Below the pieces are notes generated by a model. The model saw only the letters and a list, made by a program, of their open reading frames with translations, had not been told where the DNA came from and searched no databases. The position numbers and the translations under genes are program-made. 58,905 bases of DNA from Thermoplasmatota archaeon (GTDB taxonomy: Archaea; Thermoplasmatota; JAKEGO01; JANQNJ01): NCBI GenBank assembly GCA_028279645.1, contig JANQNJ010000002.1, positions 1 through 58,905 of the forward strand, read 5' to 3'. Shown here one piece after another: positions 1,272 to 58,108 of the stretch. Within the stretch, counting starts at the first letter, position 1; each line of letters begins with the position of its first letter.

Positions 1272-1292
1272 GTGTTTTTTTATAAAAAACAC
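1272..1292. promoter_or_regulatory. AT-rich near-palindrome containing a TATA-like box in the divergent GyrI-like/FAH intergenic region
   Basis: gtgtttttt-tat-aaaaaacac has 9-nt arms and a central TTTATAAA. Confidence 0.3.
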
Positions 1293-35194: not shown

Positions 35195-35573
35195 TGCGCC
35201 ATACTCCTCTCTTGCTTCGCCCTCAAAAATCCTCTGGTATATATAACTAGCTGTGAAAGTGACGGAGATCGCCCTTATTAAGTTGATAACTGAACACCGA
35301 AGGTCATTGTGTGGGGGTGAAGGTGGGGCCTGACATCCGTTCCTATCCTTTATTCAATTAATACCAAAGATAGGTCCATTCTGAATTTACTTTATTAATT
35401 AATCAGAGTATAGATGGTTCACCTGTAATTCTTTGGTTATACCCTGGTGCTAACCTGGCAGTCTATATATAGTCTGCATGGCATCTTTGCATTGCGAAAG
35501 GAGCAGGAACTATCCCGAGAGGGCTAGAACTGTTCACTTTCGGCGAGCAATCGCGAATCAGGAGGAAAAGAAA

Positions 35574-36332
35574 ATGTGGCAGAAGTTAGCGGCAATGGCC
35601 CTCGTGGTCACTATGCTGACAACGCTGGCATACAGCACATCCGCGGAAATGGCTGCACCCACGGTGGATTTCAGTCAGACACCGACGGAACAAGCGGACT
35701 GGGTTTTCATCGCAGCAGCGCTGCACGACCCTGTGAACTATATGGACGACCCTGATTATCAGGAGGCCATGGCCCTGCACGACTACTTCTTGGGTCTCGG
35801 TTTCGATGAGGAGCATATCATCCTTCTCGTCGACTACGACACCATGAACCCCATAGTCGACGGCGCGGCCACCAAGGGCAACATCTTTGCGGCCCTTGAT
35901 TTCCTGGCTACCGTGTCCACCTCGGACAGTTTCCTATTCATTGGGATCCTGAACCTTGGACATGAGAGCGGGGACGGCTTCTGGGTCCAGCTGAGCGACG
36001 AACCTCTGTACGACTGCGATCTGGATACGAAGCTGGACGCACTGACGTACGACGAGATGGTCGTTACGCTGGTCTTCAGGTACTCTGGCGGGTTCCTGCC
36101 AGAGATCGGCCAGAGCGGCAGGCTCTGCATTGCGAGCTGTAAGAACAACATCGACGTGGATACCGACTTCAGGCTGTCCAACGCCCTTACCAACCCCAAC
36201 GCGGATTGGAACGGCAACGGCAGGATCTCCTTCGAGGAGGCCTTTTGGGACCAGTGGTCCTGGGCGAACTGGGAGTACAACCCCACCGCCAAGGACAAGA
36301 TCTGGGGCTCGGTCTACGCACCAGGCGCTTGA
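35574..36332 (+). CDS. secreted legumain/caspase-fold (peptidase C13-like, clan CD) paralog 1, type A; nucleophile Cys replaced by Tyr; C-terminal EF-hand loop
   Basis: AGGAGG Shine-Dalgarno 8 nt before ATG 35574. Signal peptide MWQKLAAMALVVTMLTTLAYSTSAE. Motif order follows legumain: DWVFIAAAL / DPDYQEAMALHDYFLGLGFDEEHIILLVDYD / NPIVDG / ATKGNIFAALDFL / SFLFIGILNLGHE (His-Gly) / VVTLVFRYSGGF (Cys position) / LCIASC. Also DWNGNGRISFEE and a C-terminus ending VYAPGA*. Confidence 0.8.
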   Translation: MWQKLAAMALVVTMLTTLAYSTSAEMAAPTVDFSQTPTEQADWVFIAAALHDPVNYMDDPDYQEAMALHDYFLGLGFDEEHIILLVDYDTMNPIVDGAATKGNIFAALDFLATVSTSDSFLFIGILNLGHESGDGFWVQLSDEPLYDCDLDTKLDALTYDEMVVTLVFRYSGGFLPEIGQSGRLCIASCKNNIDVDTDFRLSNALTNPNADWNGNGRISFEEAFWDQWSWANWEYNPTAKDKIWGSVYAPGA

Positions 36333-36557
36333 TCGCGTCAATAATGGAGAAAAAGGGAAAAATGGCTTGAAATGAGAAAGAACATTCGCCTTTCATGGAT
36401 TCTGGCCGATAATTGGTGGCGCGGAGACGGCGGCGCGGGGCGGCGGTTCGGAAGGTCACCGGTGGAAAAGGGGTCGTGGGTAAGGACCAACGGCGGCCGA
36501 GGATAATGATTGCGAGAAAGCACCAAGGGGTGCGAAAAGCCTGATTCGCTAAAGATT

Positions 36558-36575
36558 GGGGGGCGCAAGCCCCCC
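36558..36575 (+). other. 7-bp G/C hairpin with GCAA (GNRA) tetraloop in spacer 1
   Basis: ggggggc-gcaa-gcccccc, about 226 nt downstream of the paralog-1 stop. Function unknown. Confidence 0.5.
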
Positions 36576-36737
36576 GGTCTTTACCCCCCCGGCGGATCAG
36601 GCGCGGAATGCCTAGGGGTATCACAGATAGCACACTTGCAGTTAAAGCTCTAAAAATAAAAAAAGGCGATAAGGTTGCCTCCTTCTATCGTCTACGCCTC
36701 TGAGAGAGTTTTACCCCAATACAGCGAGCACATCTTC

Positions 36738-36803
36738 GCCGGCCCGGTCTGCCTCCCGGGCCGGCTTTAGCCCCCCTCGGACCCTGCCTAGGTCCGGGGG
36801 GCT
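36738..36803 (+). other. two adjacent strong GC hairpins in spacer 1
   Basis: gccggcccgg-tctgcctc-ccgggccggc is a perfect 10-bp stem (36738-36765). It is followed by agcccccc..ggacc-ctgccta-ggtcc-ggggggct (36769-36803), then tatatataa. Confidence 0.5.
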
Positions 36804-36928
36804 GTGCCTTCTATATATAATTAAAGTAACAAATAGATACGTCTGTCATCGGCGGGATCCCGGGCGTCGATCGAGTGGTTTTTTGACCGCAGGTAGAGCC
36901 GAATGTACCGGCCGAGGGTGGTTTTCAT

Positions 36929-36982
36929 TGGTTATTTGGGTTATAACCATCGATCTATCGTTATAACCAAATTCGGGTTATA
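36929..36982. promoter_or_regulatory. cluster of GGTTATAACC palindromes / GGTTAT half-sites upstream of paralog 2
   Basis: cattGGTTATttgGGTTATAACCatcgatctatcGTTATAACCaaattcgGGTTATAtac. Perfect 10-bp palindrome at 36939-36948, about 140-190 nt upstream of ATG 37119. Confidence 0.4.
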
Positions 36983-37118
36983 TACTTCGAACGCGTCGTT
37001 CTTTTTCCTACGAGGTAGAAAAGCTTCGTAGGGACCTTGAGATATCAAGGGCTCGCCGCCGGATTAGGCGCCGGCGGTCAATAGGTGACGAAAATAGATA
37101 GAAGGAGGCAAGAACAAG

Positions 37119-37895
37119 ATGTGGAAAAAGGCTGTAAGTATGGGCTTTGTCGCTATGCTGATGATGACGCTTTTCACGGGTGTCACAGGCGACATGGCCG
37201 CGCCGACCGTAGATTATAGCGGTTACAACACCGCACAGGCCGATTGGGTCCTGATCGCCGCTGCACTGCACGACGAGGCAGGGTTCTTCAACGATCCGGA
37301 CTACCAGGAGGCAATTGCTCTGCACGACTATTTTGCGAGCATAGGCTTTGATGAGGAACATATCATCCTGCTCGTGGACTTCGATCTGGCAAACCCGATC
37401 GTTGACGGACCGGCGACCAAGGGAGATATCTATCACGCCCTTGACTTCCTCGCCACCGTGACGACCCCCGACAGCTTCGTGTTCGTCGGGATCCTCGATC
37501 TCGGCCATGAGAACATGCAGGGATACTATGTCGAGCTGAACGACGAGCCGCTCTACGATCACGAGCTGGACGCCAAGCTCGATATGCTTCAGTATGAGGA
37601 TCTCGTTGTGGACCTGGTCTTCAGGCACGCCGCCGGCTTCTTCGACTACATCGCGGAGGATGGCAGGCTCTGCTTCGGATCGACCAAGGACAACAAGGAC
37701 CTGGACGTACCGTTCCATATCTCCATTGGTCTTCAGGACATGGAGGCCGACCAGGAGTTCGGCAACGGCAACGGCAGGATCGCCTTCGAGGAGGCTTACA
37801 AGTACGAGAAGGATCGCTTGAGAGACATCGACGATTCCTTCAAGCCCAAGAAGGACGACGAGATATCCGGAAAGGTTTACGCCCCCGGAGTATAA
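37119..37895 (+). CDS. secreted legumain/caspase-fold paralog 2, type B; Cys position is His
   Basis: GAAGGAGG Shine-Dalgarno. Signal peptide MWKKAVSMGFVAMLMMTLFTGVTGD. Same motif order as paralog 1 with LDLGHE retained and LVFRHAAGFF at the Cys position. FGNGNGRIAFEE loop; ends VYAPGV*. Confidence 0.8.
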   Translation: MWKKAVSMGFVAMLMMTLFTGVTGDMAAPTVDYSGYNTAQADWVLIAAALHDEAGFFNDPDYQEAIALHDYFASIGFDEEHIILLVDFDLANPIVDGPATKGDIYHALDFLATVTTPDSFVFVGILDLGHENMQGYYVELNDEPLYDHELDAKLDMLQYEDLVVDLVFRHAAGFFDYIAEDGRLCFGSTKDNKDLDVPFHISIGLQDMEADQEFGNGNGRIAFEEAYKYEKDRLRDIDDSFKPKKDDEISGKVYAPGV

Positions 37896-38104
37896 ATCTA
37901 AAGGGACTACAACCGTAGGTCGACGGTTGAAAGGTCTTTGACTGCCATGCGCCCCCCGCTCGCAGGCAACAGTGGGTCTCCCACCCTGCTGTTGAACTGT
38001 ATGTTCGAGCCTTAGACATGTTCTGCGGGCGATCAGGGGTTTAAGTCGTGGCATTAAGGCCTTTGACCGCATCTTGCGAAGTCTCTTTTTCGTGAGGGGG
38101 GCCT

Positions 38105-38150
38105 TGCGGGCGCTTCGGCGCCTGCGGGTCCTTTTTCTTTTTTTCTTTTT
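38105..38150 (+). terminator. hairpin with UUCG tetraloop followed by long T-rich run
   Basis: tgcgggcgc-ttcg-gcgcctgcg (9 bp including 2 G-U), then ggtcc-TTTTT-c-TTTTTTT-c-TTTTT. About 210 nt downstream of the paralog-2 stop. Confidence 0.45.
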
Positions 38151-38506
38151 CATTTATCATCCCTAGCTTTGAGCTTTTTACGTCGGGTTCTTTCGTTATT
38201 GTTCTGATACCGGAACGATATCGATGGTTTTCGCTGGAGAAGCCCTTGGGATCTTTTCACCGGAATTAGGCCTTTGGGCGGCTCCTGATTTAACTTATCA
38301 CGACAAGATATTGGCTCTCAATATTCGTGATCTCAGGGGAAAGATCGGCCGAGATCCCGATGTGTCCGGGTGTGCGCCGACCCTGGTGTGAGAGTGGTTA
38401 CATTGGTGCACCAATGTAGGCGATCTCGTGAAAATGCTACTTTCGTGAAATGCCCCTTTAATTGCCATTTTCAGCATCTACAGCCGAAAAACGCCTGATG
38501 GTTGTC

Positions 38507-38553
38507 TTGGTTATAACCATCGATTTTCAAAACACCCCCAATGTTATAACCAA
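38507..38553. promoter_or_regulatory. GGTTATAACC palindrome pair upstream of paralog 3
   Basis: cttGGTTATAACCatcgattttcaaaacacccccaatGTTATAACCaaa. Same TTGGTTATAACCATCGAT core as upstream of paralog 2, about 140-180 nt before ATG 38691. Confidence 0.4.
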
Positions 38554-38690
38554 AGAGGGTTCAAATACTTTCGAGCCGAGTATCAATGTGAGTCTCGGGT
38601 TGAGATTCCGTGACAATGGTGGAAGATAAGGGGCCTGCACCGACGGGGTGCAGCATCAGAGGCGTAGAATCATAGAAGGAGGCACCAAGA

Positions 38691-39467
38691 ATGTGGAAGA
38701 AAATAGCTGTCATGACCTTTTCGGTGATGATGGTACTGACGCTCTTCTCGGGCGTGACCGCCGAGATAGCAGCGCCGACGGTAGACTATAGTGTGTATAA
38801 CACGGCAGAGGCCGATTGGGTCCTGATCGCCGCTGCCCTGCATGACGAGGCAGGGTTCTTCGATGATCCGGACTACCAGGAGGCAATTGCCCTGCACGAC
38901 TACTTTGTTAGTATTGGGATAGATGAAGAACATATCATAACTCTGATCGATTTCGATCTGGCCAACCCGATCGTGGACGGACCTGCGACGAAGGGAGACA
39001 TATATGCCGCTCTCGACTTCCTCGCCACCGTGACGACCCCGAACAGCTTCGTGTTCGTCGGGATCCTCGATCTTGGCCACGAGAACGAGCAGGGATACTA
39101 TGTCGAGCTGAACGACGAGCCGCTCTACGATCACGAGCTGGACGCCAAGCTTGACATGCTACAGTACGAGGATCTCGTCGTGGACCTTGTCTTCAGGCAC
39201 GCAGCCGGCTTCTTCGACTACATATCGGAGGATGGCAGGCTCTGCTTCGGATCGACCAAGGACAACAAGGACCTGGACGTACCGTTCCATATCTCCATAG
39301 GTCTTCAGGACATGGAGGCCGACCAGGAGTTCGGCAACGGCAACGGCAGGATCGCCTTCGAAGAGGCTTACAAGTACGAGAAGGATCGCCTGAGAGACAT
39401 CGACGATTCCTTCAAGCCCAAGAAGGACGACGAGATATCCGGTAAGGTGTACGCCCCCGGAGTCTGA
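38691..39467 (+). CDS. secreted legumain/caspase-fold paralog 3, type B'
   Basis: GAAGGAGG Shine-Dalgarno. Signal peptide MWKKIAVMTFSVMMVLTLFSGVTAE. Same length as paralog 2, with a near-identical 3' two-thirds. Confidence 0.8.
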   Translation: MWKKIAVMTFSVMMVLTLFSGVTAEIAAPTVDYSVYNTAEADWVLIAAALHDEAGFFDDPDYQEAIALHDYFVSIGIDEEHIITLIDFDLANPIVDGPATKGDIYAALDFLATVTTPNSFVFVGILDLGHENEQGYYVELNDEPLYDHELDAKLDMLQYEDLVVDLVFRHAAGFFDYISEDGRLCFGSTKDNKDLDVPFHISIGLQDMEADQEFGNGNGRIAFEEAYKYEKDRLRDIDDSFKPKKDDEISGKVYAPGV

Positions 39468-39736
39468 ACGATCAAATACGGCCGGCCATAAGGAGTAAAT
39501 GGCAGAAAGGGGAGTGCTCGCCCCTGTTGTCACCGAGGCCCTTATGGCCGTCCGGCGAGGTGCAATCGCATCGCATACATCCCCGTTGATCCTCATCAGG
39601 ATCAATCCGATGGGCTCTTTCCCCCCGTCGCCCATCGATCCGGAAAGCATGCCGCTTTGAATAAGGGATCCCCAAGGCGGGGATGTGTGTACAGTTCCGC
39701 ATTCAGTTAGGACTGCCTCCTGCTGACTTGTTGGAG

Positions 39737-39788
39737 CCGGCTGAGCGGGTGGGTAAAAAAGGCGCCCGCTCAGCCCGGGGATTTTTTT
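39737..39788 (+). terminator. long GC hairpin followed by T7
   Basis: ccggctgagcggg-(15 nt)-cccgctcagcccgg, then gg-a-TTTTTTT. About 270 nt downstream of the paralog-3 stop. Confidence 0.45.
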
Positions 39789-39854
39789 ATTTAGACGCCG
39801 AGGAGAGCATGCTCGCCGCTCCTCGATCACATAACGCTCAATAGATGGGGTCTT

Positions 39855-39914
39855 GAGGGGCCGCGCGGTAGGGGAAAGACGCGCGGTCCCCTCTCTTTTT
39901 GTTTCTTTGTTTTG
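39855..39914 (+). terminator. 13-bp GC hairpin (one bulge) followed by T-rich run
   Basis: gaggggccgcgcg-gtaggggaaaga-cgcgcggtcccctc, then tcTTTTTgTTTcTTTgTTTTg. Confidence 0.45.
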
Positions 39915-40157
39915 TACGTTGAGATAACTTCCAGCGATCATCCCTTGACGTGGAGGTCCAATTTCTCGATCCCGTTCGGGGGTGCGGGGAGGGGATGTGA
40001 ACATCCCATCTGGAAGTCTTCGCCGAACCATTATGTCGTCGATAGCACATCTCTGCATGGCGTTCCGGCAGTGCGTACTTAAAGCTTATATATCGTCAGT
40101 CGGACTATCTATATGCTTTGGGCTCTGCCCGGAGTTCCATCACGGAGGCTCGAACAT

Positions 40158-40916
40158 ATGCTTAAGGAGGCGACCAGTGTCGTAGTAGCAGCGGCACTCC
40201 TGTTAACCATGCTTTCAGGAGTTTCCGCCGAGATGGCAGCACCAACGGTAGATTTTTCCGAAATGCCTACCGGCCAGGGGGACTGGGTTTTCATCGCAGC
40301 AGCGCTGCATGATCCCCTGGACTATCTGAACGATCCTGACTACCAGGAGGCCTTGGCCCTTCACGACTATTTTGCGGGACTCGGATTCGACGAGGAGCAC
40401 ATCATCCTGCTCGTTGACTTCGATACGACGAACCCCGTTATAGATGGAGAGGTCACCAAGGGCAACATAATGGCAGCGCTCGACTTCCTCGCGGCGGTGT
40501 CGACGGAGGACAGCTTCGTCTTCTGCGGCATCCTGGATCTCGGCCACGAGGGCGGAGAGGGCTATTACGTCGAACTGAACGACGAGCCGTTGTACGATCA
40601 CGAGCTCGATGCGAAGCTCGACGCCATAGACTGCGACGACCTGGTGATCAACCTCGTGTTCAGGTATTCCGGCGGATTCCTGCCGGAGATCGGTCAGTGG
40701 GGCCGGCTCTGCATCGCGTCGTGCAAGAACAACATCGACGTTGACACGGACTTCCGCCTGTCAGTAGCCCTTACTGACCCCAATGCAGACTGGAACGGCA
40801 ACGGCAGGATCTCCTTCGAGGAGGCGTTCTGGGACCAGTGGTCCTGGGCCAACTGGGAGTACAACCCGACCTGCAAGGACAGGATCTGGGGCTCGGTATA
40901 CGCACCGGGAGCCTGA
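40158..40916 (+). CDS. secreted legumain/caspase-fold paralog 4, type A'
   Basis: GGAGG lies 8 nt before ATG 40158. Signal peptide MLKEATSVVVAAALLLTMLSGVSAE. LDLGHE retained; LVFRYSGGF at the Cys position; DWNGNGRISFEE; ends VYAPGA*. The C-terminal ~90 aa are almost identical to paralog 1. Confidence 0.8.
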   Translation: MLKEATSVVVAAALLLTMLSGVSAEMAAPTVDFSEMPTGQGDWVFIAAALHDPLDYLNDPDYQEALALHDYFAGLGFDEEHIILLVDFDTTNPVIDGEVTKGNIMAALDFLAAVSTEDSFVFCGILDLGHEGGEGYYVELNDEPLYDHELDAKLDAIDCDDLVINLVFRYSGGFLPEIGQWGRLCIASCKNNIDVDTDFRLSVALTDPNADWNGNGRISFEEAFWDQWSWANWEYNPTCKDRIWGSVYAPGA

Positions 40917-41059: not shown

Positions 41060-43750
41060 CTACTTCTTCTTTCCGCCCTTCTCGGCCTCGTTGAGCTCCT
41101 TGAGCTCCTTCTCCACACGGTCTATCAGGTTGCCCTTGCCGTGCTCCTTGTATATCGTCATGGCCTCTTCGAGATACTTCCGGGCGTTCTTGTTGTCGCC
41201 CTTCTTCTTGTACATCTGGGAGTAGAAATAGTACCGTTCGGCGAGGTTGAACGGCATGTCGATCTCCTGGACGATCTTGATCGACTCGTCGAAGTGCTTC
41301 ATCGCCTCGTCCCAGTTGCCCAGCTCCGAGTAGACCTCGCCGTAGATCTGGTGGACGTAGGACTCGCCGATCCGGTCCTCCATGGAGCGCAGGATGGAAT
41401 ATGACTCTGAAAGATACATCAGCGCCTCTTCGGTCTTGTTCTGCTTGCTGAGGACGCTGCTGACGTTGAGCAGGGCGTAGGCCAGGCGCTTCGTGTTGGC
41501 AGTGTTCCGGGCCAGCTCTATGCACCGCTCCCAGCTGTTCCTGGCGTCGTCGAGGTTGTTCAGGATATAATGGGCCACTCCGAGCTCGTTGTAGGCCCTT
41601 CCAACGCGGTAGTTGTCACCCTGGTCCTCGAAGTACTTGATGGAGCGCTCGCAGACCTCCACGGCCTCGGTGGAGCGGTTCATCTCGTTGAGGACCATGG
41701 CCTCGTCGATGAGGGCCTCGTTGGATACCTCCTCATCCCCGGCGGCCTCCGCGCTCTCCTGGGCCCGGACCATGTACTCAAGGGCTCGCTTGTGGTCGCC
41801 GCGCCGCAGCTGGATCTTTCCCAGGCCGCGCATGGTGTCCGCCTCTGCAGATCGGTCTCCAAGCTTGGCGGCCTCGTCCAGGGCCATCTGGAAGTAGTCC
41901 ACGGCCCGATCGAGGGTCCCCTTCTCCATCTCCAGGTGGCCGATCTGCCTGAAGGCGTGGGACCGGACCTTGTAGTTGGTGCTGGAGCAGGACTTGAGCG
42001 CGGTGTGGTACTTGTCGAGCGCCGCCTCCCATTCGCCCTCGGCGAAGAAGAGGTCGCCCGATATGAGCATCATTCCGTAATGGTAATCGGTGGGGATATT
42101 GTCCTCGAGCTTCTGGATGACGACGTGGAGCTCATCGAGGAGTCCCCGGTTGATCATCATGCGGCCGTTGTCCACCAGGATCTCGGCGGCGGTGTCGAAG
42201 TCCTCCGCCTCCAGGAAGTGGAGCGTGGCGGAAAGGAGCGAGCTGAGGTCGCCCTTGCCCTGATAGTACGTGGCGGCGAGCGTGTGGTTCGACTGCCGTT
42301 CCTCCGGTGTGAGCCGGCTGTAGGCGAGCTCACGCACGATGTCGTGGAGGTATATCCCCTCGTAGGGGATCTCCTGGAGAAGATCGTGCTCGATGAGGGC
42401 GTCGAACGCCTCGTAGGGGAGCCCGGCCACCGACAGGGCCTCGTGCTCTATGGGATAACGGTAAACGGAAGCGAGACCCAGGAGCTGCTGCTCCTCGGGC
42501 TTGAGCTTCGAGAAGATCTCGGAGTTCATGAAACGGTGGATATCGGACGGACGACGCGCGTCGCCCGGCGTCCTGATCAGCTCCAGCGCCAGCGGATGGC
42601 CGCCGGTCATCTGGATGATCCTGTCGACGTCGTCCTCCGGGATACCCCTGGCCATCAACAGTTCCTTCGAGCTGATCTCGTCGAGACCCTTCAGGCGGAT
42701 CTCGCCGATGGTCCCGCGGACGCGCACCTCCCTCCGGTCGTAGAAGTTCGGCTGGATCCTGGATGTGACCAGGATCTTGACCTCCTTGCCCCGGAGGACC
42801 TGGTGGAAGAGCTTGAACATCGTCTCCAGGCGCTCGGGGTTCTTGTGGTAGTCGTCGTAGACCAGGATCGCCTGCATCCCTTCGAACGCCTTGTCCAGGA
42901 TGTTGTAGAGCTCGCTGTAGTTGATCGTCTTGTTCGTCTTGAGATAGGACTGCAGGTCCCTCTCCGATAGATGCGAGAGGAACTCGCCCAGCGGCGTGAT
43001 GGCCGCTCTGACGGTGTCCCACTCGTGGAACTGGTACCAGAAGAGGTTCGCCTTGTCGGCGAACTCGTTGATGATGTGATAGACCAGGGTGGACTTGCCG
43101 ATACCGGGGATACCGGTCACCACGCCGATGCGGATGTCCGACTCGAGCCACTCCATGATCTGTCCGACCTCGTCGTCCCTTCCGAAGAACTGCTTCAGCG
43201 GGGGCTGCCCCTCTGTGTACTTGATGTACTTCGGCCGGTCCTCTCCCGCGTCCTTGCCGGTCTCGTAATCGACGACGAGGGAGTCGAAGTCGAGCTTCGT
43301 GGTGTTGAGGTCGTCAAGGGTCCTGACGAGCTTCAGAAGCGGGAACTCCGGCGGGAGCTTAGAGAGGACCTCCTTCAGGGTGTACCTGTTGACCTTGCCC
43401 TTCTCGGTGACGGAGAGCTCCGCCTCCTCGATGTTGTCCAGGATCTCCGTCCCCTTCTCCATGCCAATGGCTGTGAGGAAGTAGACGGCTCTGCGCCGGG
43501 ACTCGCCGGTCACGGTGCCCGAAAAACGATCGACGAGGCCCTCGGTCTCGAGGTCCTTCATGGCCCTTGGAACGTGGTTCCAGCGGATGCCGACGGCGTC
43601 GGCGATGCCGGGCTGGGATATGCCGATGGGAGTCGATTTGTAAAGTTCGTCTCCGGGATTTGCGTCAGGGGCGAACCTGTCTTTAGGGAAGGTTAGAAGA
43701 TGGAGTAGTATCTTTTCCTTTACGGTGATGGGGTTCTTTCGCCCTGGCAT
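41060..43750 (-). CDS. STAND ATPase: N-terminal winged helix + NB-ARC/AP-ATPase module + C-terminal TPR array (896 aa)
   Basis: wHTH (GISQPGIADAVGIRWNHVPRAMKDLETEGLV), Walker A GVVTGIPGIGKSTLV, Walker B AILVYDDYH, VLVTSR-like KILVTSR, and TGGHPLALELI (the GxPLAL signature of NB-ARC). About 450 aa of TPR-like repeats follow (...AFRQIGHLEMEKGTLDRAVDYFQMAL..., ...YFYSQMYKKKGDNKNARKYLEEAM). Confidence 0.85.
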   Translation of the reverse strand: MPGRKNPITVKEKILLHLLTFPKDRFAPDANPGDELYKSTPIGISQPGIADAVGIRWNHVPRAMKDLETEGLVDRFSGTVTGESRRRAVYFLTAIGMEKGTEILDNIEEAELSVTEKGKVNRYTLKEVLSKLPPEFPLLKLVRTLDDLNTTKLDFDSLVVDYETGKDAGEDRPKYIKYTEGQPPLKQFFGRDDEVGQIMEWLESDIRIGVVTGIPGIGKSTLVYHIINEFADKANLFWYQFHEWDTVRAAITPLGEFLSHLSERDLQSYLKTNKTINYSELYNILDKAFEGMQAILVYDDYHKNPERLETMFKLFHQVLRGKEVKILVTSRIQPNFYDRREVRVRGTIGEIRLKGLDEISSKELLMARGIPEDDVDRIIQMTGGHPLALELIRTPGDARRPSDIHRFMNSEIFSKLKPEEQQLLGLASVYRYPIEHEALSVAGLPYEAFDALIEHDLLQEIPYEGIYLHDIVRELAYSRLTPEERQSNHTLAATYYQGKGDLSSLLSATLHFLEAEDFDTAAEILVDNGRMMINRGLLDELHVVIQKLEDNIPTDYHYGMMLISGDLFFAEGEWEAALDKYHTALKSCSSTNYKVRSHAFRQIGHLEMEKGTLDRAVDYFQMALDEAAKLGDRSAEADTMRGLGKIQLRRGDHKRALEYMVRAQESAEAAGDEEVSNEALIDEAMVLNEMNRSTEAVEVCERSIKYFEDQGDNYRVGRAYNELGVAHYILNNLDDARNSWERCIELARNTANTKRLAYALLNVSSVLSKQNKTEEALMYLSESYSILRSMEDRIGESYVHQIYGEVYSELGNWDEAMKHFDESIKIVQEIDMPFNLAERYYFYSQMYKKKGDNKNARKYLEEAMTIYKEHGKGNLIDRVEKELKELNEAEKGGKKK

Positions 43751-44840: not shown

Positions 44841-44880
44841 AGGCAGTTCCCGTCTTTTCATCGTTCGTCAAGGGCCAGTC

Positions 44881-45020
44881 GTTTTCTCAGCATGGGTGAA
44901 GGCATCTTCCAAGAATGGGTGCTAGCATTTTCCTGGCGCGGGCCGTCCGTCCGTCGGGCGGGTTCGAACATTATTCTAGCATGGGTCCAAGTGTTTTCCG
45001 GCGTGGGCGTCGTCGTTCAT
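44881..45020. repeat. copy B of the ~67-bp repeat family (about two units)
   Basis: ...cagCATGGGTgaAGgcaTcTTCCaagaATGGGTgctAGCaTTTTCCtGGCGCGGGCCGTCCGTCCGTCGGGCGGGTTCGAACattattctaGCATGGGTCCAAGtgTTTTCCgGCGTGGGCGTCGTCGttc. Lies in the convergent intergenic region between guaA and the GNAT gene. Confidence 0.75.
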
Positions 45021-45146
45021 AGTGCGTGTCCTTCTTTGACATCTGTGAACCCGCCCCTGATCGGATCAGTTGTCTACAGCGGAGATCCTCATCGCATAGG
45101 AGAGGTCGATGCGGCCGCCCATGAGTGGAAATGGCACCACATCGTG

Positions 45147-45728
45147 TCAGATCCGCTTCCGCATATACAGCCAGTCTCCCAGCCTGTTGTGATACTTCGT
45201 GACCACCTCGAAACCGAGCCTTTCGTAGAACCTTACTGCCTCGCTGTTCTCCTTGACACCCAGACCGAAGGTCTTCATTCCGAGGTTCTTCAGGCGGGCT
45301 TCCGCCCGTCTGACGAGCAGTCCGCCGACGCCCTGGCCCCGATGGTCTTCCATGACACCCACGGCCTCGAGGACCCCCTCCTTCTCCAGGCGCTTGGGTG
45401 TACTCCTCGTGTAGCTCCTTGCGACCCTCCAGGCCTTCAGCGCCCCGAAGAGGCCCAGGACCTTGACCACCTTCAAGACATTGCCGTCCACAGGGTCGAT
45501 CTCCTCGGTGGTCACGATGATAGCTCCCACCACCTCGCCTCCGGTGACTGCAATGAACTTCTCGCCCCTCATGGACCCGACGATGATGGGTACCACGCGC
45601 CCGGCCCTTTTTTGGCCTCCGATGGCCACGATCTTGTCGTCGAAGGCCGAGGCGATGACGCGGGATACAGCGTCCATGTCCGGCGCGCCTGCCCTCCGGA
45701 TGATGATGTCGTCGATCCGGCGCATCAT
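45147..45728 (-). CDS. GNAT-family N-acetyltransferase
   Basis: ...LEAVGVMEDHRGQGVGGLLVRRAEARLKNLG...ENSEAVRFYERLGFEVV is the acetyl-CoA motif Q/RxxGxG/A. The ATG overlaps the upstream stop (ATGA). Confidence 0.85.
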   Translation of the reverse strand: MMRRIDDIIIRRAGAPDMDAVSRVIASAFDDKIVAIGGQKRAGRVVPIIVGSMRGEKFIAVTGGEVVGAIIVTTEEIDPVDGNVLKVVKVLGLFGALKAWRVARSYTRSTPKRLEKEGVLEAVGVMEDHRGQGVGGLLVRRAEARLKNLGMKTFGLGVKENSEAVRFYERLGFEVVTKYHNRLGDWLYMRKRI

Positions 45729-46840
45729 ATTGGGATCATCTCCACCAGGTCCAGGGTCTCGATATCCCCCTTGGCCGCCCTGGCGAATCGGGTGGTGCAG
45801 GTCTGGCATGTCGATACCAGCGCATCCGCTCCCATGGCCAGAGCCTCGTCGACCCGGTCCCTGGCCAGCTCGAGCGAGCTCTCCGGGTGAACGGTGCCTA
45901 GACCCCCTCCACCTCCGCAGCAGGCCGATCTCGCCCTGTTGAAGCGGAACTCGAGGAGCTCGAAGCCGAGTGCCTCGATGATCTTGCGGGGTTCCTCCGT
46001 GATCCCGAGCTTGCGCCCCAGGTTGCAGGGGTCGTGGTAGGCCACCCGCCCTCCAGCCGCCTTTCCCGCGTCGCCGGGCAACGCTTTCCCTGGCTTCCTT
46101 GAGGCGAGGAACTCCGTGATATGGACCGTCTTGAAGGGCATCTTCGCCACCTTCGGTTGCAGGTTCACGAGGACGTTCGTGCATCCGGGGCAGGAGGTGA
46201 TAAGCCTCTTGACCCCCTTCTTCTTGATCTCCGCTGCGATCATACCGGCGTTGTCACGGAAATCGTCGGCCATACCGGCATTGAACACCGACGAACCGCA
46301 GCAGTGCTCGTCGATGGCGGCCGGCCGGACCCCTTCCCGCTCCAGGAGGGCGACCGTGTGAACGGCAAGCTTCGGATTGTTTGCCAGGACGTTGCAGCCG
46401 GGGAAGTATCCAACGCTCGCCTTTTCCGGCAGCCCCTCCGACCAGGACCTGTCCTTTGAGGGATAGGGTGTTCCATCGTCCAGGGCGCGCCTGGCGCTGG
46501 CGTTCATCTCCTCGGGTATGAGCCCCTCCCGCTGGAGGAACTCCCTGACCTTGGGGATCTGTCCGTAGATGCCGGCGTCGGCAAGGCAGGCCTCTGAACA
46601 TTGCCCGCATACCGCGCAGTCCAGAACGATCTCCAGAAGGTCCTCGATATCCAGCCTTCCCTCCGAGTATGCGGCAAGGACCCTGTTCTTCCCCCTTGGA
46701 TTGCCTGATTCGAAGGCGTTGAGACGGTACGATGGGCAGTTGTCCCGGCAGAACGAGCACTCTGTGGTGGAGCACCTCTCCGCCTGCCGCAGCGCCTCCT
46801 CGAGCTCGTGTTCGTGCTCCCTGGCCCTCTTCGCACCCAT
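45725..46840 (-). CDS. Fe-S / CCG-domain subunit (GlcF/LutA/HdrD-like) of FAD-linked 2-hydroxyacid oxidoreductase
   Basis: Ferredoxin-like Cys motifs (CSFCRDNCP, CAVCGQCSEAC) and two CCG domains (YFPGCNV...HCCGS; YHDPCNLGR...ACCGGGGG). ATG 46840 lies 1 nt after the upstream stop. Confidence 0.85.
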   Translation of the reverse strand: MGAKRAREHEHELEEALRQAERCSTTECSFCRDNCPSYRLNAFESGNPRGKNRVLAAYSEGRLDIEDLLEIVLDCAVCGQCSEACLADAGIYGQIPKVREFLQREGLIPEEMNASARRALDDGTPYPSKDRSWSEGLPEKASVGYFPGCNVLANNPKLAVHTVALLEREGVRPAAIDEHCCGSSVFNAGMADDFRDNAGMIAAEIKKKGVKRLITSCPGCTNVLVNLQPKVAKMPFKTVHITEFLASRKPGKALPGDAGKAAGGRVAYHDPCNLGRKLGITEEPRKIIEALGFELLEFRFNRARSACCGGGGGLGTVHPESSLELARDRVDEALAMGADALVSTCQTCTTRFARAAKGDIETLDLVEMIPI

Positions 46841-51818: not shown

Positions 51819-52054
51819 TGGTGTCACCAGTGGTCGAGCGGAGCCGTAATAGTTAAGGTTTATGGTCAAGGACTTGACTATCGGTGGTTCAATGGTCCTG
51901 TGCCAGCAACTGTTCTCGAGAACCTCGAGCCGTTCTCCACCTTCGCCGTGGTCGTTGTTCCACCGAAGGTTCGAGGATCGACCGAACCGGTCCGGCGCAA
52001 ACTACATCTACCGTACCCTCCATCGCGTGGATACACGATCAACGGAGTGATATC

Positions 52055-52402
52055 ATGACATCAATAGGCATCGGGCTTGGTTCCCCGGCATACTCCTCAG
52101 AAAGGGCCTTCACTGCCCTGAACTTCATGCGCACGGCCCTTCTCGAGGGCCACAGTATCAGGGTATTCCTCTTCGAGGACGCGGTATTCCTTGCCAAGAG
52201 GGGTCAGGACCCCGGCAACTTCTCCAACCCCCTGGAATGGCTCGGGGAGGTCGTGGAAGGCGCCGAGGCCGTCAAGGCCTGCGGCACATGTTGCCAGGAA
52301 AGGGGGCTCGTTCAGGACGAGCTCATCCACGGCGTCGTCATCGGCAGCATGAACGACTTCGTCGGCTTCATCGCGGATAGCGACAGATCGGTGATCTTCT
52401 AA
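52055..52402 (+). CDS. DsrE/DsrF-family sulfur-relay protein
   Basis: 115 aa. ...AFTALNFMRTALLEGHSIRVFLFEDAVFLAKRG...VKACGTCCQERGL... is a DsrE-fold pattern with an active-site Cys region. Confidence 0.7.
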   Translation: MTSIGIGLGSPAYSSERAFTALNFMRTALLEGHSIRVFLFEDAVFLAKRGQDPGNFSNPLEWLGEVVEGAEAVKACGTCCQERGLVQDELIHGVVIGSMNDFVGFIADSDRSVIF

Positions 52403-52504
52403 TAATTCCACACACAGAAGGGGAACGGTCCGACCAGGAAGGCAAGGAACGGCCTTTCCCAATAGCTAGAGGAACGGTCTGTCCCGATGGTCGGACGACC
52501 TGGA

Positions 52505-52924
52505 TCATTCCCTGTTGGTGCAGATGCCGCACTCCGACATCTCTCCCGCCCCGACCATCTCCTTGAACAGGGGGTTCCTCTGGAGCTGCATACAGAACCT
52601 ACCGAGCATATAGGAGAGCTCGAACTGCTCCCCCGCGGCATGTTTCTCGGCCAGGGTGGCGGCGGCCATGGCAGCGAACGCCTCCACCTCCGGGAACTCC
52701 TTGATGACCTCCTCGTCGCCTCCGCGGACCCCGGATGTGTACTGGCTCACAGCGGCGTTGGAGGTCCCTATCATCACCGCGATATCCGAGGGTCGGACCC
52801 CATGGTCATGGCGCAATCCGTATGCCACACGCGCCCTAAGCGTCGGAAAGAAGCGGATGACTATCAGCTCGCATGGTGTTCTCATGCTCTTGTCCCCGTC
52901 CTGCCACCCTTCATGATATTTCAT
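52505..52924 (-). CDS. HTH transcriptional regulator (COG2522-like archaeal regulator)
   Basis: ...PCELIVIRFFPTLRARVAYGLRHDHGVRPSDIAVMIGTSNAAVSQYTSGVRGG... is an XRE-type HTH plus C-terminal Cys pair (CGIC). Divergent from the YeeE gene. Confidence 0.65.
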   Translation of the reverse strand: MKYHEGWQDGDKSMRTPCELIVIRFFPTLRARVAYGLRHDHGVRPSDIAVMIGTSNAAVSQYTSGVRGGDEEVIKEFPEVEAFAAMAAATLAEKHAAGEQFELSYMLGRFCMQLQRNPLFKEMVGAGEMSECGICTNRE

Positions 52925-53039
52925 CTAAAAAGGCCTTTCGGACGGAGCTGTCGTGGGGATATCGGCCACCGACGCAGATAGAATTAACGGTGTGAAATTC
53001 TTAAATAGATGGAACCGTGATGCCGTGACAGGTGCAAAA

Positions 53040-54338
53040 ATGCCCGAAAAAGAGCACGATACAAAGGAGTTCCCTGACGAAGACCCGGCTGCAGAGGCCA
53101 AGGACACCGGGACCGATAGGCGGTCCGATAAGGGAACGAGGGAAGATCGGGGAGAGCCTCCCGCCAAGCAAAAGGCCCCTCGTGCCACAAAGAAGGCCGG
53201 GCCCTCTGCGAGACCAACGCCCCCTTCGGGACCACTGGACGGCATCCGCACCATGAGCAACAGGCTGTTCAGCTCTAAGATAGGGATCATCATCGCCGGT
53301 GCATTCATAGGTATCGTCGCGGCCCTGCTCCAGAGCAAGGGGAACCCCGGGAACATGGGTTTCTGTATCGCCTGTTTCCAGAGGGACATCGTCGGAGCCC
53401 TGCGCCTCCACAGCGCCGGCCCCGTCCAATACATCCGACCGGAGATCATCGGGATAGTCCTCGGGGCGCTGATAGCGTCCCTGTTCTTCAAGGAGTACAG
53501 GGCGCGCAGCGGCAGTGCCCCCATCATCCGCTTCGTACTGGGCTTCTTCGCCATGATGGGCGCCCTGGTCTTCCTGGGCTGCCCGTGGAGGGCTTACCTA
53601 AGGCTTGCTGGAGGCGACTGGAATGCCATCGTCGGCCTGGTCGGCCTGGGCTTCGGTGTGTTCGTCGGGACCCTCTTCATCAGGAACGGCTTCAACCTGG
53701 GCCGGAGCAGGAAGACCTATAGACACGTGGGTCTAGTCATCCCGATCCTCATGATCGGGCTCCTGCTCGCTCTTCTCGTCGACCCGGCATGGACCGGCGG
53801 GGGGAAGATCTTCGCATCCACACCAGGAGGAGGCGGGCCGGGCGCCATGGCAGCCCCCATCGCCATGTCCCTCGCCATCGCCCTAGCGGTGGGCTTCCTT
53901 GCCCAGAGGACGCGGTTCTGCACGATCGGCGGCATGAGGGATGCGATCCTCATCAGGGACTTCCACCTCCTGTTCGGCGCCCTTGCGCTCCTCATCGCGG
54001 CCTTTGTCACGAACATGGTCCTTGGCCAGTACGAGGCCGGTTGGGAGGACCAACCGCTCGCCCATACCGACGGACTGTGGAACTTCCTAGGAATGACCCT
54101 TTCCGGCCTTGCATTCGCCCTGGCAGGCGGGTGCCCCGGCAGGCAGCTCGTTCTGTCCGGCGAGGGCGATGCGGATGCCGGAATCTTCATTTTCGGGATG
54201 ATGGCCGCCGCCGCCTTCGCACACAACTTCAGGATAGCCGCCACCGGCGCGGGTGTGAGCGAATGGAGCGGCAACGCGGTCCTTCTCGGGCTGCTCGTTT
54301 GCGGCATCATAGGGTTCACCATGAGGGATAGGGCCTGA
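53040..54338 (+). CDS. YeeE/YedE-family sulfur-compound (thiosulfate) transporter
   Basis: Conserved core from MSNRLFSS (ATG 53253) with GNMGFCIACFQRDIVG and FLGCPWR motifs repeated in the second half (RTRFCTIGG..., LAGGCPGRQ). ATG 53040 would add a 71-aa charged, disordered N-terminus, so the start is uncertain. Confidence 0.8.
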   Translation: MPEKEHDTKEFPDEDPAAEAKDTGTDRRSDKGTREDRGEPPAKQKAPRATKKAGPSARPTPPSGPLDGIRTMSNRLFSSKIGIIIAGAFIGIVAALLQSKGNPGNMGFCIACFQRDIVGALRLHSAGPVQYIRPEIIGIVLGALIASLFFKEYRARSGSAPIIRFVLGFFAMMGALVFLGCPWRAYLRLAGGDWNAIVGLVGLGFGVFVGTLFIRNGFNLGRSRKTYRHVGLVIPILMIGLLLALLVDPAWTGGGKIFASTPGGGGPGAMAAPIAMSLAIALAVGFLAQRTRFCTIGGMRDAILIRDFHLLFGALALLIAAFVTNMVLGQYEAGWEDQPLAHTDGLWNFLGMTLSGLAFALAGGCPGRQLVLSGEGDADAGIFIFGMMAAAAFAHNFRIAATGAGVSEWSGNAVLLGLLVCGIIGFTMRDRA

Positions 54339-54406
54339 AGATCAACAGGGGCTCCTCCACCGCTCGAACAGGGCCATCGTCCTGGTGGAGCCCTCGACAT
54401 TCATGA

Positions 54407-54631
54407 ATGGAGATGCTTGAAATGGAACGTTTGGATGTAAGGGGCCTCTCCTGCCCCATGCCCGCCATGCAGGTGCGGAAGATGATAAAGAAGGTCGGAA
54501 CCGGAAGTATCGAGGTACTTGTCGACGTGGGGGCGGGCAGGGACAATATCGTCCGCATCGCGGGCGAACAGGGCTGGAAGGTAGACGAGGAGCCAGGAGA
54601 CGAGTACTCGACCCTGACCCTTAAGAAGTAG
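54407..54631 (+). CDS. tusA: TusA/SirA-family sulfurtransferase
   Basis: LDVRGLSCPMPAMQVRKMIKKV... is the canonical CPxP active-site motif. 74 aa. Confidence 0.85.
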   Translation: MEMLEMERLDVRGLSCPMPAMQVRKMIKKVGTGSIEVLVDVGAGRDNIVRIAGEQGWKVDEEPGDEYSTLTLKK

Positions 54632-54663
54632 CTATGACATCGAGGCTTCGAGGCACCGAACAC

Positions 54664-55836
54664 ATGATCTACTTCGACAACGCAGCCACTTCTTGGCCCA
54701 AGCCGGAAGGCGTCATCGAGGCAATGGCGGCCTTCAGCAGGGAGGTGGGCGCCAACCCCGGGCGTGCCGGCCACCGCATGTCTGTCGAAGCGGGACGCAT
54801 CGTGAACGACGCCCGTGACGCCGTGGCCGAACTCCTCCACGTCAATGATCCACTACGTGTCGTTCTCGGCTCTAACGCCACGGAAGCCCTCAACCTCGCC
54901 ATCTTCGGTCTGCTCGGGTCGGGCGACCATGTCGTTACCTCAGGCATGGAGCACAACTCCGTCATGAGGCCGCTTCGGCAGCTCGAGGCGATCGGTGTCG
55001 AGCTGACCGTCGTCGAATGCGCAGCGGACGGCTCGATGGACCCGTACGACGTCGACGCGGCCATCCGTCAGGAGACACGGCTTGTGGTGCTCAATCATGC
55101 ATCCAACGTCGTCGGCACCCTTCTCCCGGTCAGCGACGTGGGCGCGATATGCAGGGAGAACGACGCCCTGCTGCTGGTCGACGCGGCTCAGACCGCCGGC
55201 ACCCACCCCGTCCACATGGACGATGACAACATCGACCTCATCGCGTTCACGGGTCACAAGGGGATGATGGGCCCCCAGGGCACCGGCGGACTGGTCATCG
55301 GCGAGCGTGTGAACATAGCCGACCTACGACCGCTCAAGCACGGAGGCACCGGCAGCCGCTCGGAGCTCGAGGTGCAGCCCGATTTCCTCCCGGACAGGTA
55401 CGAGAGCGGGACAATGAACACCATCGGCCTGGCAGGCCTGATCGCGGGCATAGAGTACGTACTGCAGAAGGGTGTCGAAGCGATCAGGGAGCACGAGTCA
55501 TCACTGCTGGCCCGTTTCATCGACGGGGCGAGGACGATCCCAGGAGCGACCCTGTACGGTCCGATGGATACGGCCCGACAGACGGCCACCACTTCCTTGA
55601 ATATCGACGGCCTCTCGCAATCGGAGGCCGGCCTGATGCTCGACGAGGAGCACAACATAATGTCCCGGGTGGGGCTCCATTGCTCGCCGTCCGCTCACCG
55701 AACCCTTGGGACCTTCCCGGACGGCACCGTCCGATTCGGCTTCGGCCTCTTCAATACCGCCGAGGAGATCGACATTTCCCTCGAAGCCCTGGAGAATATG
55801 GCGGAGGGTGCCAGAACCTCCGGGGGTGGCCGGTGA
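54664..55836 (+). CDS. cysteine desulfurase (class-V PLP aminotransferase fold)
   Basis: MIYFDNAATSWPKP..., GSNATEALN, MEHNSV, LLVDAAQTAG, FTGHKGMMGPQGTG (PLP-Lys), and RVGLHCSPSAH (active Cys). ATG 54634 is an alternative start. Confidence 0.9.
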   Translation: MIYFDNAATSWPKPEGVIEAMAAFSREVGANPGRAGHRMSVEAGRIVNDARDAVAELLHVNDPLRVVLGSNATEALNLAIFGLLGSGDHVVTSGMEHNSVMRPLRQLEAIGVELTVVECAADGSMDPYDVDAAIRQETRLVVLNHASNVVGTLLPVSDVGAICRENDALLLVDAAQTAGTHPVHMDDDNIDLIAFTGHKGMMGPQGTGGLVIGERVNIADLRPLKHGGTGSRSELEVQPDFLPDRYESGTMNTIGLAGLIAGIEYVLQKGVEAIREHESSLLARFIDGARTIPGATLYGPMDTARQTATTSLNIDGLSQSEAGLMLDEEHNIMSRVGLHCSPSAHRTLGTFPDGTVRFGFGLFNTAEEIDISLEALENMAEGARTSGGGR

Positions 55837-56061
55837 ATGACGGAGTTCTGCGTCGCCCTGTTCTACTCCAACAGCCACGCCCTCAGGGCCGAGAAGCTGG
55901 CCAAGAAGGCCGGCTTCAAGGTCAAGGTCATCCCTACGCCCAGACACCTGAGCTCCGACTGTGGCTTCGCTCTCAGGTGCGACGAGGACGACGTCCCGGC
56001 GATCCAGGGGATCATGGACGGAGACAGCGTGGAGTACGACCGGATAGAGAAGGTAGGCTAA
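55837..56061 (+). CDS. DUF3343-family small protein (putative S/Se carrier-associated)
   Basis: CVALFYSNSHALRAEKLAKKAGFKVKVIPTPRHLSSDCGFALRC. The start abuts the desulfurase stop. Confidence 0.65.
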   Translation: MTEFCVALFYSNSHALRAEKLAKKAGFKVKVIPTPRHLSSDCGFALRCDEDDVPAIQGIMDGDSVEYDRIEKVG

Positions 56062-56182
56062 CCGGTGCTCCCTTCTTTCATTGAGGCCGGCGGTCCTGCC
56101 TCCCACGGTAGTGTCTTCGGCCCCATGGCAGAACCACTTGAACCCGCACTTGGACGCATTCGTGCACCCGCCGCAGATACTT

Positions 56183-56219
56183 CCGCCCCGTGGCGGCTTT
56201 GCTGAACCCCCTTTTTTTT
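56183..56219 (+). terminator. short hairpin plus T8 run downstream of the sulfur operon
   Basis: ccgcc-ccgt-ggcgg, then ...ccccc-TTTTTTTT (56212-56219). Confidence 0.4.
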
Positions 56220-56297
56220 AAAGATCGTGATCGTGAAAGACGGAACAGAAAACAATAAGCTCCATGATGTACATCCACCTCATCGAGCTGAAGGACC

Positions 56298-56573
56298 ATG
56301 GCGGATGTAGAGAAAGGGTCGAAGGAGGCGATAGGGGCCTCGATGGACATCAGGGGGCGCGTATGTTCAAAGCCGTTCATGGACATCAGGAGGACCATAT
56401 CGCGTCTCGGCCCGGGCGACCTCGTCGAACTTCTCATGGACCAGAAACAGGTAGCCACAGTGAAGCGGATTTTCGTACGGGTCCATGGCCACGAGATGGT
56501 CGTCGAATCCCACGCCGAAGGTGGTGGGGCGAGGCTCGTCCTCCGGGTCGACCCCGCGGGGAAAGGGAAGTGA
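56298..56573 (+). CDS. TusA-like protein with degenerate active-site motif
   Basis: MDIRGRVCSKPFMDIRRTISRLGPGDLVELLMD... has the TusA fold pattern, but with CSKP in place of CPxP. Confidence 0.6.
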   Translation: MADVEKGSKEAIGASMDIRGRVCSKPFMDIRRTISRLGPGDLVELLMDQKQVATVKRIFVRVHGHEMVVESHAEGGGARLVLRVDPAGKGK

Positions 56574-56645
56574 GGTATTCTGACACCTTTCTATCTGTCA
56601 CACATCCGATCTATGTCCGATCTCCACGACGATAGAGAGGGGATC

Positions 56646-57044
56646 TTAAAAGCTCAACTGGACGTCGCTCTCCTCCAGGATACCGGCGAACTCCGGCATT
56701 CCCGTCTGCTTGACGCCCTCAAGGAGGGCGCTTTCCCTCAGGAGGCCGAGCTTGACGCACAGGTCGCACACGTGGAAGTTCACTCCGAGCTCGCGCGCCG
56801 TCTCGAGCTGCTCGGGGTATGTGAAGGCCCCTGCGGTCTTTAACTTCCGTTCATAGAACCATGTTACAGGGAAAAGCAGTCCAGGAAACCATGGCCGGTA
56901 CCCCTTCTTCATTATCCTTGCGCCTCTGAAGATCCCGTAAAGATGGACTTCGTGACCTGATAGGGCTAGGTTGTTAGCCGACATCAGGGCAGTCATGGCC
57001 TGCTCGTAATGACACGATGTAAGTATGATCGCCGCCTTCCCCAT
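56646..57044 (-). CDS. DsrE/DsrF-like family protein
   Basis: AAIILTSCHYEQAMTALMSANNLALSGHEVHLYGIFRGARIM...FHVCDLCVKLGL. 132 aa. Confidence 0.6.
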   Translation of the reverse strand: MGKAAIILTSCHYEQAMTALMSANNLALSGHEVHLYGIFRGARIMKKGYRPWFPGLLFPVTWFYERKLKTAGAFTYPEQLETARELGVNFHVCDLCVKLGLLRESALLEGVKQTGMPEFAGILEESDVQLSF

Positions 57045-57766: not shown

Positions 57767-57844
57767 GGAGCCGAACAATGCCCCCTCAAATAATAAAGAT
57801 ATGGGTGAACGCGGGGCCTTCCGGATCGTTGCTGGCCGCTGGAC

Positions 57845-58075
57845 CGCCGTCCGCGCCGTCGTCCGTAGGGAGGGGCCGAACAATATTCTAGCAGGGGCCC
57901 AAGCGTTTTCCAACCGGGGGCGTCATCGTCCGTTGGGCGGGTGCTAACCGCATTCAAGCACGGGTGAATGCGTTTTCTTGGCGCGGACGCCGTCGTCCGT
58001 TGGGCGGGTCCGGCTGAATCAAAGCAAGGGTCTAGGCATTCTCCAAGCAAGGGAGTCGGCGCCAGCGCTATTGCT
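57845..58075. repeat. copy C of the ~67-bp repeat family (about 3.3 units)
   Basis: Units begin at about 57852, 57917 and 57984: gCGCCGTCGTCCGTaGGGaGGGgCCGAACaatattctaGCAgGGGcCCAAGCgTTTTCCaaccgg / GGGCGTCaTCGTCCGTTGGGCGGGTgCtAACcgcattcaaGCAcGGGTgaAtGCgTTTTCttGGCGC / GGaCGCCGTCGTCCGTTGGGCGGGTCCGgctgaatcaaaGCAaGGGTCtAgGCaTTcTCCaagcaagg. Confidence 0.8.
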
Positions 58076-58108
58076 ATTTATTGTTGAAAAAGAAGAAACG
58101 GATAAGGC

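Follow-up and report, generated by a model that had tools for sequence, protein, structure and literature searches.

A degenerate, three-module ~67-nt repeat family in intergenic DNA of a Thermoplasmatota archaeon

Results

Genes around three repeat arrays

The window analyzed here, the whole 58,905-nucleotide stretch of DNA, is an ordinary archaeal chromosome segment. Its genes, according to Pfam scans, include those for TruD, RpoL, an aldehyde:ferredoxin oxidoreductase, a pyruvoyl arginine decarboxylase and a sulfur-relay cluster. The nearest TruD homologs, from Thermoplasmata and Methanomassiliicoccales MAGs, are 38%–39% identical, and the nearest arginine decarboxylase is 48% identical. 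Ten window proteins were looked up, of which four were on record; none of these shared a 90%-identity cluster with a protein of another genome, and three of the four clusters were singletons. Such low identities and near-empty clusters point to a deep-branching Thermoplasmatota archaeon as the host, one that has no close relatives among sequenced genomes. A tRNA gene at 32477–32594 (minus strand; Rfam 40.6 bits), missed by ARAGORN, is 118 nt long, which implies an intron and supports an archaeal host.

Three gaps between genes hold the arrays. Locus A lies in a divergent gap (1168–1444) between a GyrI-like gene (minus strand, 634–1167) and an FAA hydrolase gene (plus strand, start at 1445 or 1415). 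Locus C occupies a convergent gap (44841–45146) between a GATase gene (plus strand, ending at 44840) and a GNAT gene (minus strand, ending at 45147), and locus D a co-directional gap (57767–58108) between the pyruvoyl arginine decarboxylase gene (minus strand, start at 57766) and a gene for a small membrane protein (minus strand, stop at 58109). An earlier, sequence-only reading of this DNA had placed all three loci in intergenic DNA, and the Pfam-supported flanking genes confirm this with one caveat: the gene call on a Logan contig puts the FAA hydrolase start at window position 1415, an ATG within the last module of the array. Because the gaps are divergent, convergent and co-directional, the arrays do not keep to any one arrangement relative to promoters, terminators or gene direction.

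That reading also took the long open reading frame at 44892–45890 to be a product of the repeats. The frame is spurious, begins at an ATG in a repeat module and has no Pfam match, but its length does not derive from the repeats and is mainly a consequence of its antisense position relative to the GNAT gene, which Pfam supports.

Just left of locus A lies an AT-rich palindromic box, GTTTTTTTATAAAAAAC (1273–1289, plus strand), and after it a perfect GC-rich 10-bp hairpin (GAGGGCCGCC at 1300–1309 and GGCGGCCCTC at 1321–1330, with an 11-nt loop). Together they may represent a bidirectional TATA element and, within the divergent gap, a hairpin that is terminator-like or part of a leader. At the other end of the window, the sulfur-relay cluster (51884–57044) encodes a DsrE-like protein, a Sulf_transp membrane protein, a class-V aminotransferase (cysteine desulfurase-like), a Se/S carrier, TusA and DsrE/DsrF, and sits directly upstream of the gene for arginine decarboxylase, the one flanking locus D.

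A single repeat family at three loci

The stretch at 57845–58075 had been described as three consecutive units of a degenerate ~67-nt repeat, and nhmmer and shuffle tests bear this out. Over the window, nhmmer detected five full units (1349–1422, 44942–45010, 57853–57922, 57918–57982 and 57985–58056), every one on the plus strand, and two half-units at 44886–44942. This search was circular, its profile having been built from the units themselves, and was therefore replaced by leave-one-locus-out models. A model built from the three units of locus D only (57848–58047) found 44943–44999 (E = 5e-12) and 1357–1412 (E = 1.3e-10), and a model from the units of loci A and C only recovered the three locus D units (E = 9e-11, 8e-8 and 8e-6); with either model, no other site in the window fell below E = 0.08. 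The proposal that the same element occurs at 1338–1445 and 44881–45020 is thereby upheld. A pattern of invariant positions, CGTCCGTNGGGNGGG-N(13-19)-GCANGGG-N(6-10)-TTNTC, matched five out of five units and none of 100 dinucleotide shuffles.

Could the likeness be due to chance or to faulty assembly? The units are degenerate, and Tandem Repeats Finder did not report the array, a miss explained by units that are merely 65%–80% alike. Against this stand the leave-one-locus-out E-values (5e-12 to 8e-6) and the shuffles, which effectively refute the idea; moreover, the locus D array is also present, with identical sequence and identical scores, on Logan contig L001, an independently stored assembly of run SRR20820740. 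The three loci form one repeat family, and their cross-locus homology is robust. The repeat is real, non-coding and new by sequence.

Arrays are mosaics of three short modules

Each 67-nt unit is composed of three modules of ~22–23 nt, a (GCGYGGGCGTCGTCGTCCGTY), b (GGGCGGGTYCGAACATTATTCTA) and c (GCAYGGGTCCAAGCGTTTTCC(NN)), and each module opens with G-N3-GGG. Locus A (1342–1435, plus strand) reads a-b-c-a′, which is one full unit followed by a truncated a module. Locus C (44868–45022, plus strand) reads c-c-c-a-b-c-a′, with three stand-alone c modules ahead of its one full unit and truncated a′; module c is thus able to repeat alone, with a period of 22–23 nt. Locus D (57846–58069, plus strand) has three full units (57848–57914, 57915–57981 and 57982–58047) and again ends in a′. 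The truncated a′, GCRTGGGCGTCGTCG, is a right end common to all arrays, although more diverged in locus D, whereas the left ends are not alike between loci.

The core of the unit is CGTCCGTYGGGCGGGT, beside which the tail of b and the c sequence recur. Invariant positions fall in blocks (CGTCCGT-N-GGG-N-GGG, GCA-N-GGG and TT-N-TC), and a T4 run is present in every c module. GGG runs recur every 20–25 nt, mostly every 22–23 nt, throughout all three arrays, forming chains of four, seven and five, the last of which resumes past one degenerate GGA; these are the sole plus-strand chains of at least four in the window. Weight matrices for the modules found no extra copies elsewhere in the window on either strand, and the c module of locus A, which was outside the training set, scored 25 bits, whereas shuffles reached at most 15. 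The sequence-only reading had not described the division of the unit into three modules, the mosaic makeup of the arrays, their shared truncated right end or the lack of homogenization within a locus.

Another stretch of GGG phased at 20–24 nt runs on the minus strand at 56104–56211, within the gap 56062–56297, and shares short words with the family (GTCCAAGTG, GGGTTCAAG and GGGGCCGAAG). Its similarity to the arrays was not significant (P = 0.03–0.24; nhmmer E = 2.5), so that the likeness may be due to chance or the stretch may be an inverted copy in advanced decay.

Divergence between units

Pairwise identity between units ranges from 65% to 80%. Adjacent units of locus D share 66%–70%, versus 80% for C1 and D1 and 72% for A1 and C1, which belong to different loci. 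Since neighbors are no closer than units from separate loci, the pattern suggests an old dispersal and not recent or ongoing local amplification or homogenization, and it fits copies of similar age that would since have diverged roughly equally. The number of invariant columns was 30 out of 63, just slightly above the 24.9 ± 2.4 expected under uniform decay (P = 0.027), and the longest invariant run, seven columns, was not significant (P = 0.12); some constraint on unit positions is possible.

Folding and coding tests

A structured RNA had been among the candidate roles, and folding did not support it. Compared with shuffles, RNA folds of single units gave z-scores from −1.4 to +2.2 over both strands, and the whole array gave z = −0.19 (plus) and −1.13 (minus). 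Single-stranded DNA folds were similarly unremarkable (z from −1.3 to +1.4). RNAalifold returned weak consensus folds (−7.6 and −3.7 kcal/mol) with no supporting covariation. The sole helix that it kept consistently was a 5-bp invariant stem, CGTCC-GTY-GGGCG, which includes a G-T pair and is disrupted in unit D1; the outer helix showed a few double changes, alongside broken pairs. An 8-bp hairpin in D2 (CGCATTCA/TGAATGCG, followed by TTTTC) was set aside, as the other units do not keep it in register. At the three loci, Rfam searches at E ≤ 10 returned just unrelated families (9–17 bits, E from 1.6 to 9.3), below the gathering threshold.

A period of 67 nt is not a multiple of three, so that no constant reading frame passes through the array; a coding array was rejected because the frame moves by one base with each unit. 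A G-quadruplex was likewise rejected: the loops between G-runs measure 13–19 nt, and the canonical limit is 7.

Comparison with known repeat classes

The arrays are not CRISPRs, as the sequence-only reading had also concluded. Homology between units, and also between loci, extends to the part of the unit that would have to serve as spacer: the locus D model aligns to loci A and C over model positions 9–66, and 1359–1402 matches 44948–44991 at 86% over 44 nt. With the whole unit homologous across loci, there are no unique spacers. CRISPR repeats are near-identical over ~23–50 bp, whereas these units are 65%–80% identical and their best-conserved stretch is ~16–19 nt. Pfam scans of ~60 ORFs found no cas domain in the window.

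Terminal inverted repeats had been sought in vain before, and we agree: at none of the loci are the ends paired by an inverted repeat. Read directly, the flanks share no duplicated bases that would mark a target-site duplication, and a MITE was rejected on both counts. Pfam scans likewise found no transposase, RAYT or integrase encoded in the 58.9-kb window. The suggestion of a REP-like element holds if the term is used loosely for any interspersed repeat between genes; it fails in the strict sense, the defining REP palindrome being absent and the single-stranded DNA folds unremarkable. One segment had been said to mimic a tRNA T-arm with no cloverleaf to go with it; consistent with this, neither Rfam (E ≤ 10) nor ARAGORN finds a tRNA at the three loci, and a tRNA-derived element was rejected on these grounds. 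An integron attC site was also rejected: a GTTRRRY site and a hairpin are both absent, and the loci lie 13–43 kb apart and not one per cassette.

Search for relatives

The family had been called undescribed, and matches were absent from Rfam, plasmids, phages and the literature searched. A strict two-block pattern had no match in 185,579 genomes, one per species, a collection that accordingly lacks the host genome as well. A looser three-block pattern had two (in Rhizobiaceae and Streptomyces), which were judged to be chance hits given the number expected for that pattern and their scores of 5–7 bits with the unit model; the same three-block pattern had no match in JGI metagenomes. A two-core tandem pattern retrieved 16 contigs, all carrying other repeat families that shared with ours only the 14-nt core forced by the pattern and scored at most 14 bits. 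Viral contigs held no pattern match, blastn found no match in plasmids and phages, and a search of the literature on Thermoplasmata repeats turned up nothing relevant.

On two of the JGI metagenome contigs, L009 (844–1056, minus strand) and L008 (931–1028, minus strand), the retrieved repeats are 57–75-bp tandem palindromic REP-like elements of the form CCCCATTCTACGGACG-GGTCCAT-CGTCCGTAGGGTGGGG. The 3′ arm of this palindrome coincides with the a/b core of the archaeal family. These contigs are presumably unrelated to the host organism, and because they score 10–14 bits and the core was forced by the pattern, the resemblance is not evidence of homology.

Four tandem paralogous genes at 35478–40916 (plus strand) encode proteins of 252–284 aa that are 57%–72% identical to one another. 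By eye, their alignment shows a hydrophobic, signal-peptide-like N-terminus, and the proteins share invariant His and Cys residues (GH-E, GRLC) and a calcium-loop-like NGNGRI-FEEA motif. The gaps between the genes are unusually long (~650–800 nt), being part of a ~1.5-kb duplication unit. The proteins had no Pfam match and no PDB sequence match, and among 5.8 billion proteins only two homologs (53%–54% identity). A profile search with this family reached only two distant homologs, on foreign contigs (L004–L006). L004, the sole syntenic relative reached, carries cupin-RpoL-TruD together with a paralog of this secreted family, its TruD being 38% identical; no copy of the repeat was found in its 9 kb.

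Discussion

Origin of the arrays and competing explanations

We favor, with a probability of roughly 0.55, a lineage-specific, non-coding, interspersed mosaic repeat of intergenic DNA, akin to STAR, MIRU and BIME/BOX elements, a reading that rests on three loci (five full units) in one 58.9-kb contig. In an old episode, copies would have reached several intergenic sites by a transposition-like route or by recombination, leaving a defined right end in the truncated a module. The number of modules would later have been altered by slippage or unequal exchange, of which the c-c-c run of locus C may be a trace, and the copies would then have diverged roughly equally from one another. We infer the mode of spread, the age and, if the element acts at all, an action as DNA rather than as RNA. 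Several observations sit less well with this reading: the window encodes no mobilizing enzyme, the loci have neither target-site duplications nor terminal repeats, and the boxed invariant motifs with their 22–23-nt phasing suit a binding array at least equally. Prokaryotes tend to delete useless DNA, and the retention of 90–220-bp arrays at ~30% divergence therefore hints at some function.

The arrays could instead be phased platforms for a sequence-specific DNA-binding protein (nucleoid-associated, partition/centromere-like or regulatory), the main rival to our reading, somewhat unlikely but suggested by the layout of the modules. With a G-N3-GGG box every 22–23 bp, approximately two helical turns, successive sites would face almost the same side of the helix, as in plasmid iterons or the sopC centromere of F. 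The GGG spacing of 20–25 nt does run through all arrays, which contain the only plus-strand chains of at least four in the window, and the stand-alone c modules of locus C keep the 22–23-nt step. Invariant columns are slightly in excess (P = 0.027), invariant positions are grouped into short boxes, and no RNA or single-stranded DNA structure competes as an explanation. Plasmid iterons are commonly 17–22 bp long with a spacing of ~22 bp. The phasing, however, amounts in essence to a single observation, the units being homologous copies of each other; GGG chains of four to five arise in shuffles too (mean of 1.6 per shuffled window), and a period of 22.3 bp amounts to 2.1 turns, an imperfect phase. 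Outside the heptamer, a, b and c have little sequence in common, no rep, par or orc gene adjoins any locus, and orientation to the neighboring promoters differs between loci A and D. A bolder version, which we consider quite unlikely, makes the arrays chromosomal landing pads for a lineage-specific protein, for example archaeal centromere-like or nucleoid-organizing sites. If it were true, a G-N3-GGG box every two turns would nucleate a protein filament, and the shared plus-strand orientation would reflect chromosome or replichore polarity.

It is very unlikely that the arrays work as transcripts, that is, as an unstructured leader, trailer or small RNA whose repeated GGG or U-rich (UUUUC) sites would be recognized by an RNA-binding protein or by termination factors. 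Every unit is on one strand and each c module has its T4 run; AT-rich, TATA-like boxes upstream of locus A (1264–1290) and locus D (~57795–57810) could fire rightwards, in which case locus A would form the FAA hydrolase 5′ leader, and locus C would fall in the GATase 3′ trailer. Yet neither strand gave a thermodynamic signal or covariation, Rfam offered no family at E ≤ 10, and the position relative to genes is inconsistent, with locus D becoming an orphan transcript between two minus-strand genes. Decay from a known class, whether an orphan degenerate CRISPR, a MITE or a RAYT-mobilized palindromic REP/BIME, is highly improbable. The 67-nt period is within the CRISPR range, D2 and D3 contain short inverted repeats (GGGCG-TCAT-CGTCC and CGGACG-CCGT-CGTCCG), and CGTCCGTAGGGTGGGG is the 3′ arm of the REP-like element in L008 and L009. 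These points are outweighed by the homology of the "spacer" part between units and loci, the conservation of only ~16–19 nt at best, the absence of terminal inverted repeats, and a window devoid of cas genes, transposases and RAYTs; the short hairpins vary across units with no stability signal, and the likeness to L008/L009, forced by the search pattern, scores 10–14 bits against 57–65 for true units.

Relation to described elements

The mosaic repeat that we favor has several counterparts in bacteria. The STAR elements of Staphylococcus aureus are GC-rich direct repeats with recurring spacers, arranged in ~50-nt tandem units in intergenic DNA, and their function is unknown (PMC3532100). The archaeal family resembles them as an interspersed intergenic direct repeat with a short GC-rich core and a recurring spacer, in tandem units of ~50–70 nt. 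Unit number varies by locus in both, the loci are unrelated, and neither the function nor the spreading mechanism of STAR is known (PMC3532100). Unlike STAR, the archaeal units lack the consensus T(G/A/T)TGTTG(G/T)GGCCC(C/A) and have no sequence similarity to it, which makes the family an analog and not a member; the host is an archaeon and not a firmicute, and three-module G-N3-GGG phasing is unreported for STAR in PMC3532100.

MIRUs, the interspersed repetitive units of mycobacteria, are mostly intergenic minisatellites (PMC3635867). Shared features are tandem direct repeats of tens of bases (40–100 bp is the MIRU criterion), multiple, mostly intergenic loci and a GC-rich genome. MIRUs are thought to be co-transcribed within operons, with which they are co-oriented, whereas the archaeal loci include convergent and divergent gaps. 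Supply et al. (1997), who first described MIRUs, reportedly found that they carry small ORFs overlapping the flanking genes; the 67-nt period, in contrast, breaks any frame, and there is no sequence similarity.

The BIMEs of E. coli and the BOX elements of S. pneumoniae are mosaic arrays in which a few short module types, variable in number and order, stand between genes, and the archaeal arrays follow the same plan. However, BIME modules are palindromic REPs in alternating orientation and BOX elements have boxA and boxC ends and stable folds, whereas the archaeal modules are all direct, without palindrome or folding signal. Among protein-binding arrays, the ~22-bp iterons and the sopC centromere of F, with its 43-bp periodicity, are tandem direct repeats as well. 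The G-N3-GGG box found every 20–25 nt here, mostly 22–23 nt, may be likened to them, with the proviso that the units are not independent and that short chains occur in shuffles too. Iterons and sopC are conserved to a far higher degree and sit beside rep or par genes, at a single dedicated locus or a few; the archaeal element lies in three ordinary chromosomal gaps with no rep or par genes near. Judged by these comparisons, it is an analog of STAR, MIRU and BIME/BOX and a member of none.

Interspersed repeats that are neither CRISPRs nor MITEs are poorly catalogued in archaea, and this one comes from a lineage that has no close sequenced relative. New by its sequence but ordinary in kind, the family joins a familiar class of interspersed intergenic repeats, which in general have no known function. 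If abundant across the genome, the repeat would serve as a marker for binning and, through its variable unit number, for strain typing of the lineage; it would also be a candidate DNA-binding array and a source of contig breaks and of wrong start-codon calls, one gene call already starting within a module.

Other features of the window

A 2513-aa ORF at 18591–26132 (minus strand), presumably a giant surface protein, contains many Ig-like, CARDB, NPCBM-associated and FixG_C domains. The G+C content of this stretch is reduced (0.50–0.55 vs. ~0.59 elsewhere), and an ORF for an HTH regulator (17996–18757) overlaps the 3′ end of the giant ORF. An 896-aa STAND-type NTPase (NB-ARC/ATPase_2) at 41060–43750 (minus strand) is fused to a long TPR array; proteins of this architecture often act in defense or signaling. 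Finally, Logan contigs L007 and L001 (SRR20820740) stop at exactly window bases 1 and 58905, which suggests that repeats or low-complexity sequence interrupted the assembly there. At its right end, the window falls within a Gly/Pro/His-rich coding region of a minus-strand ORF.
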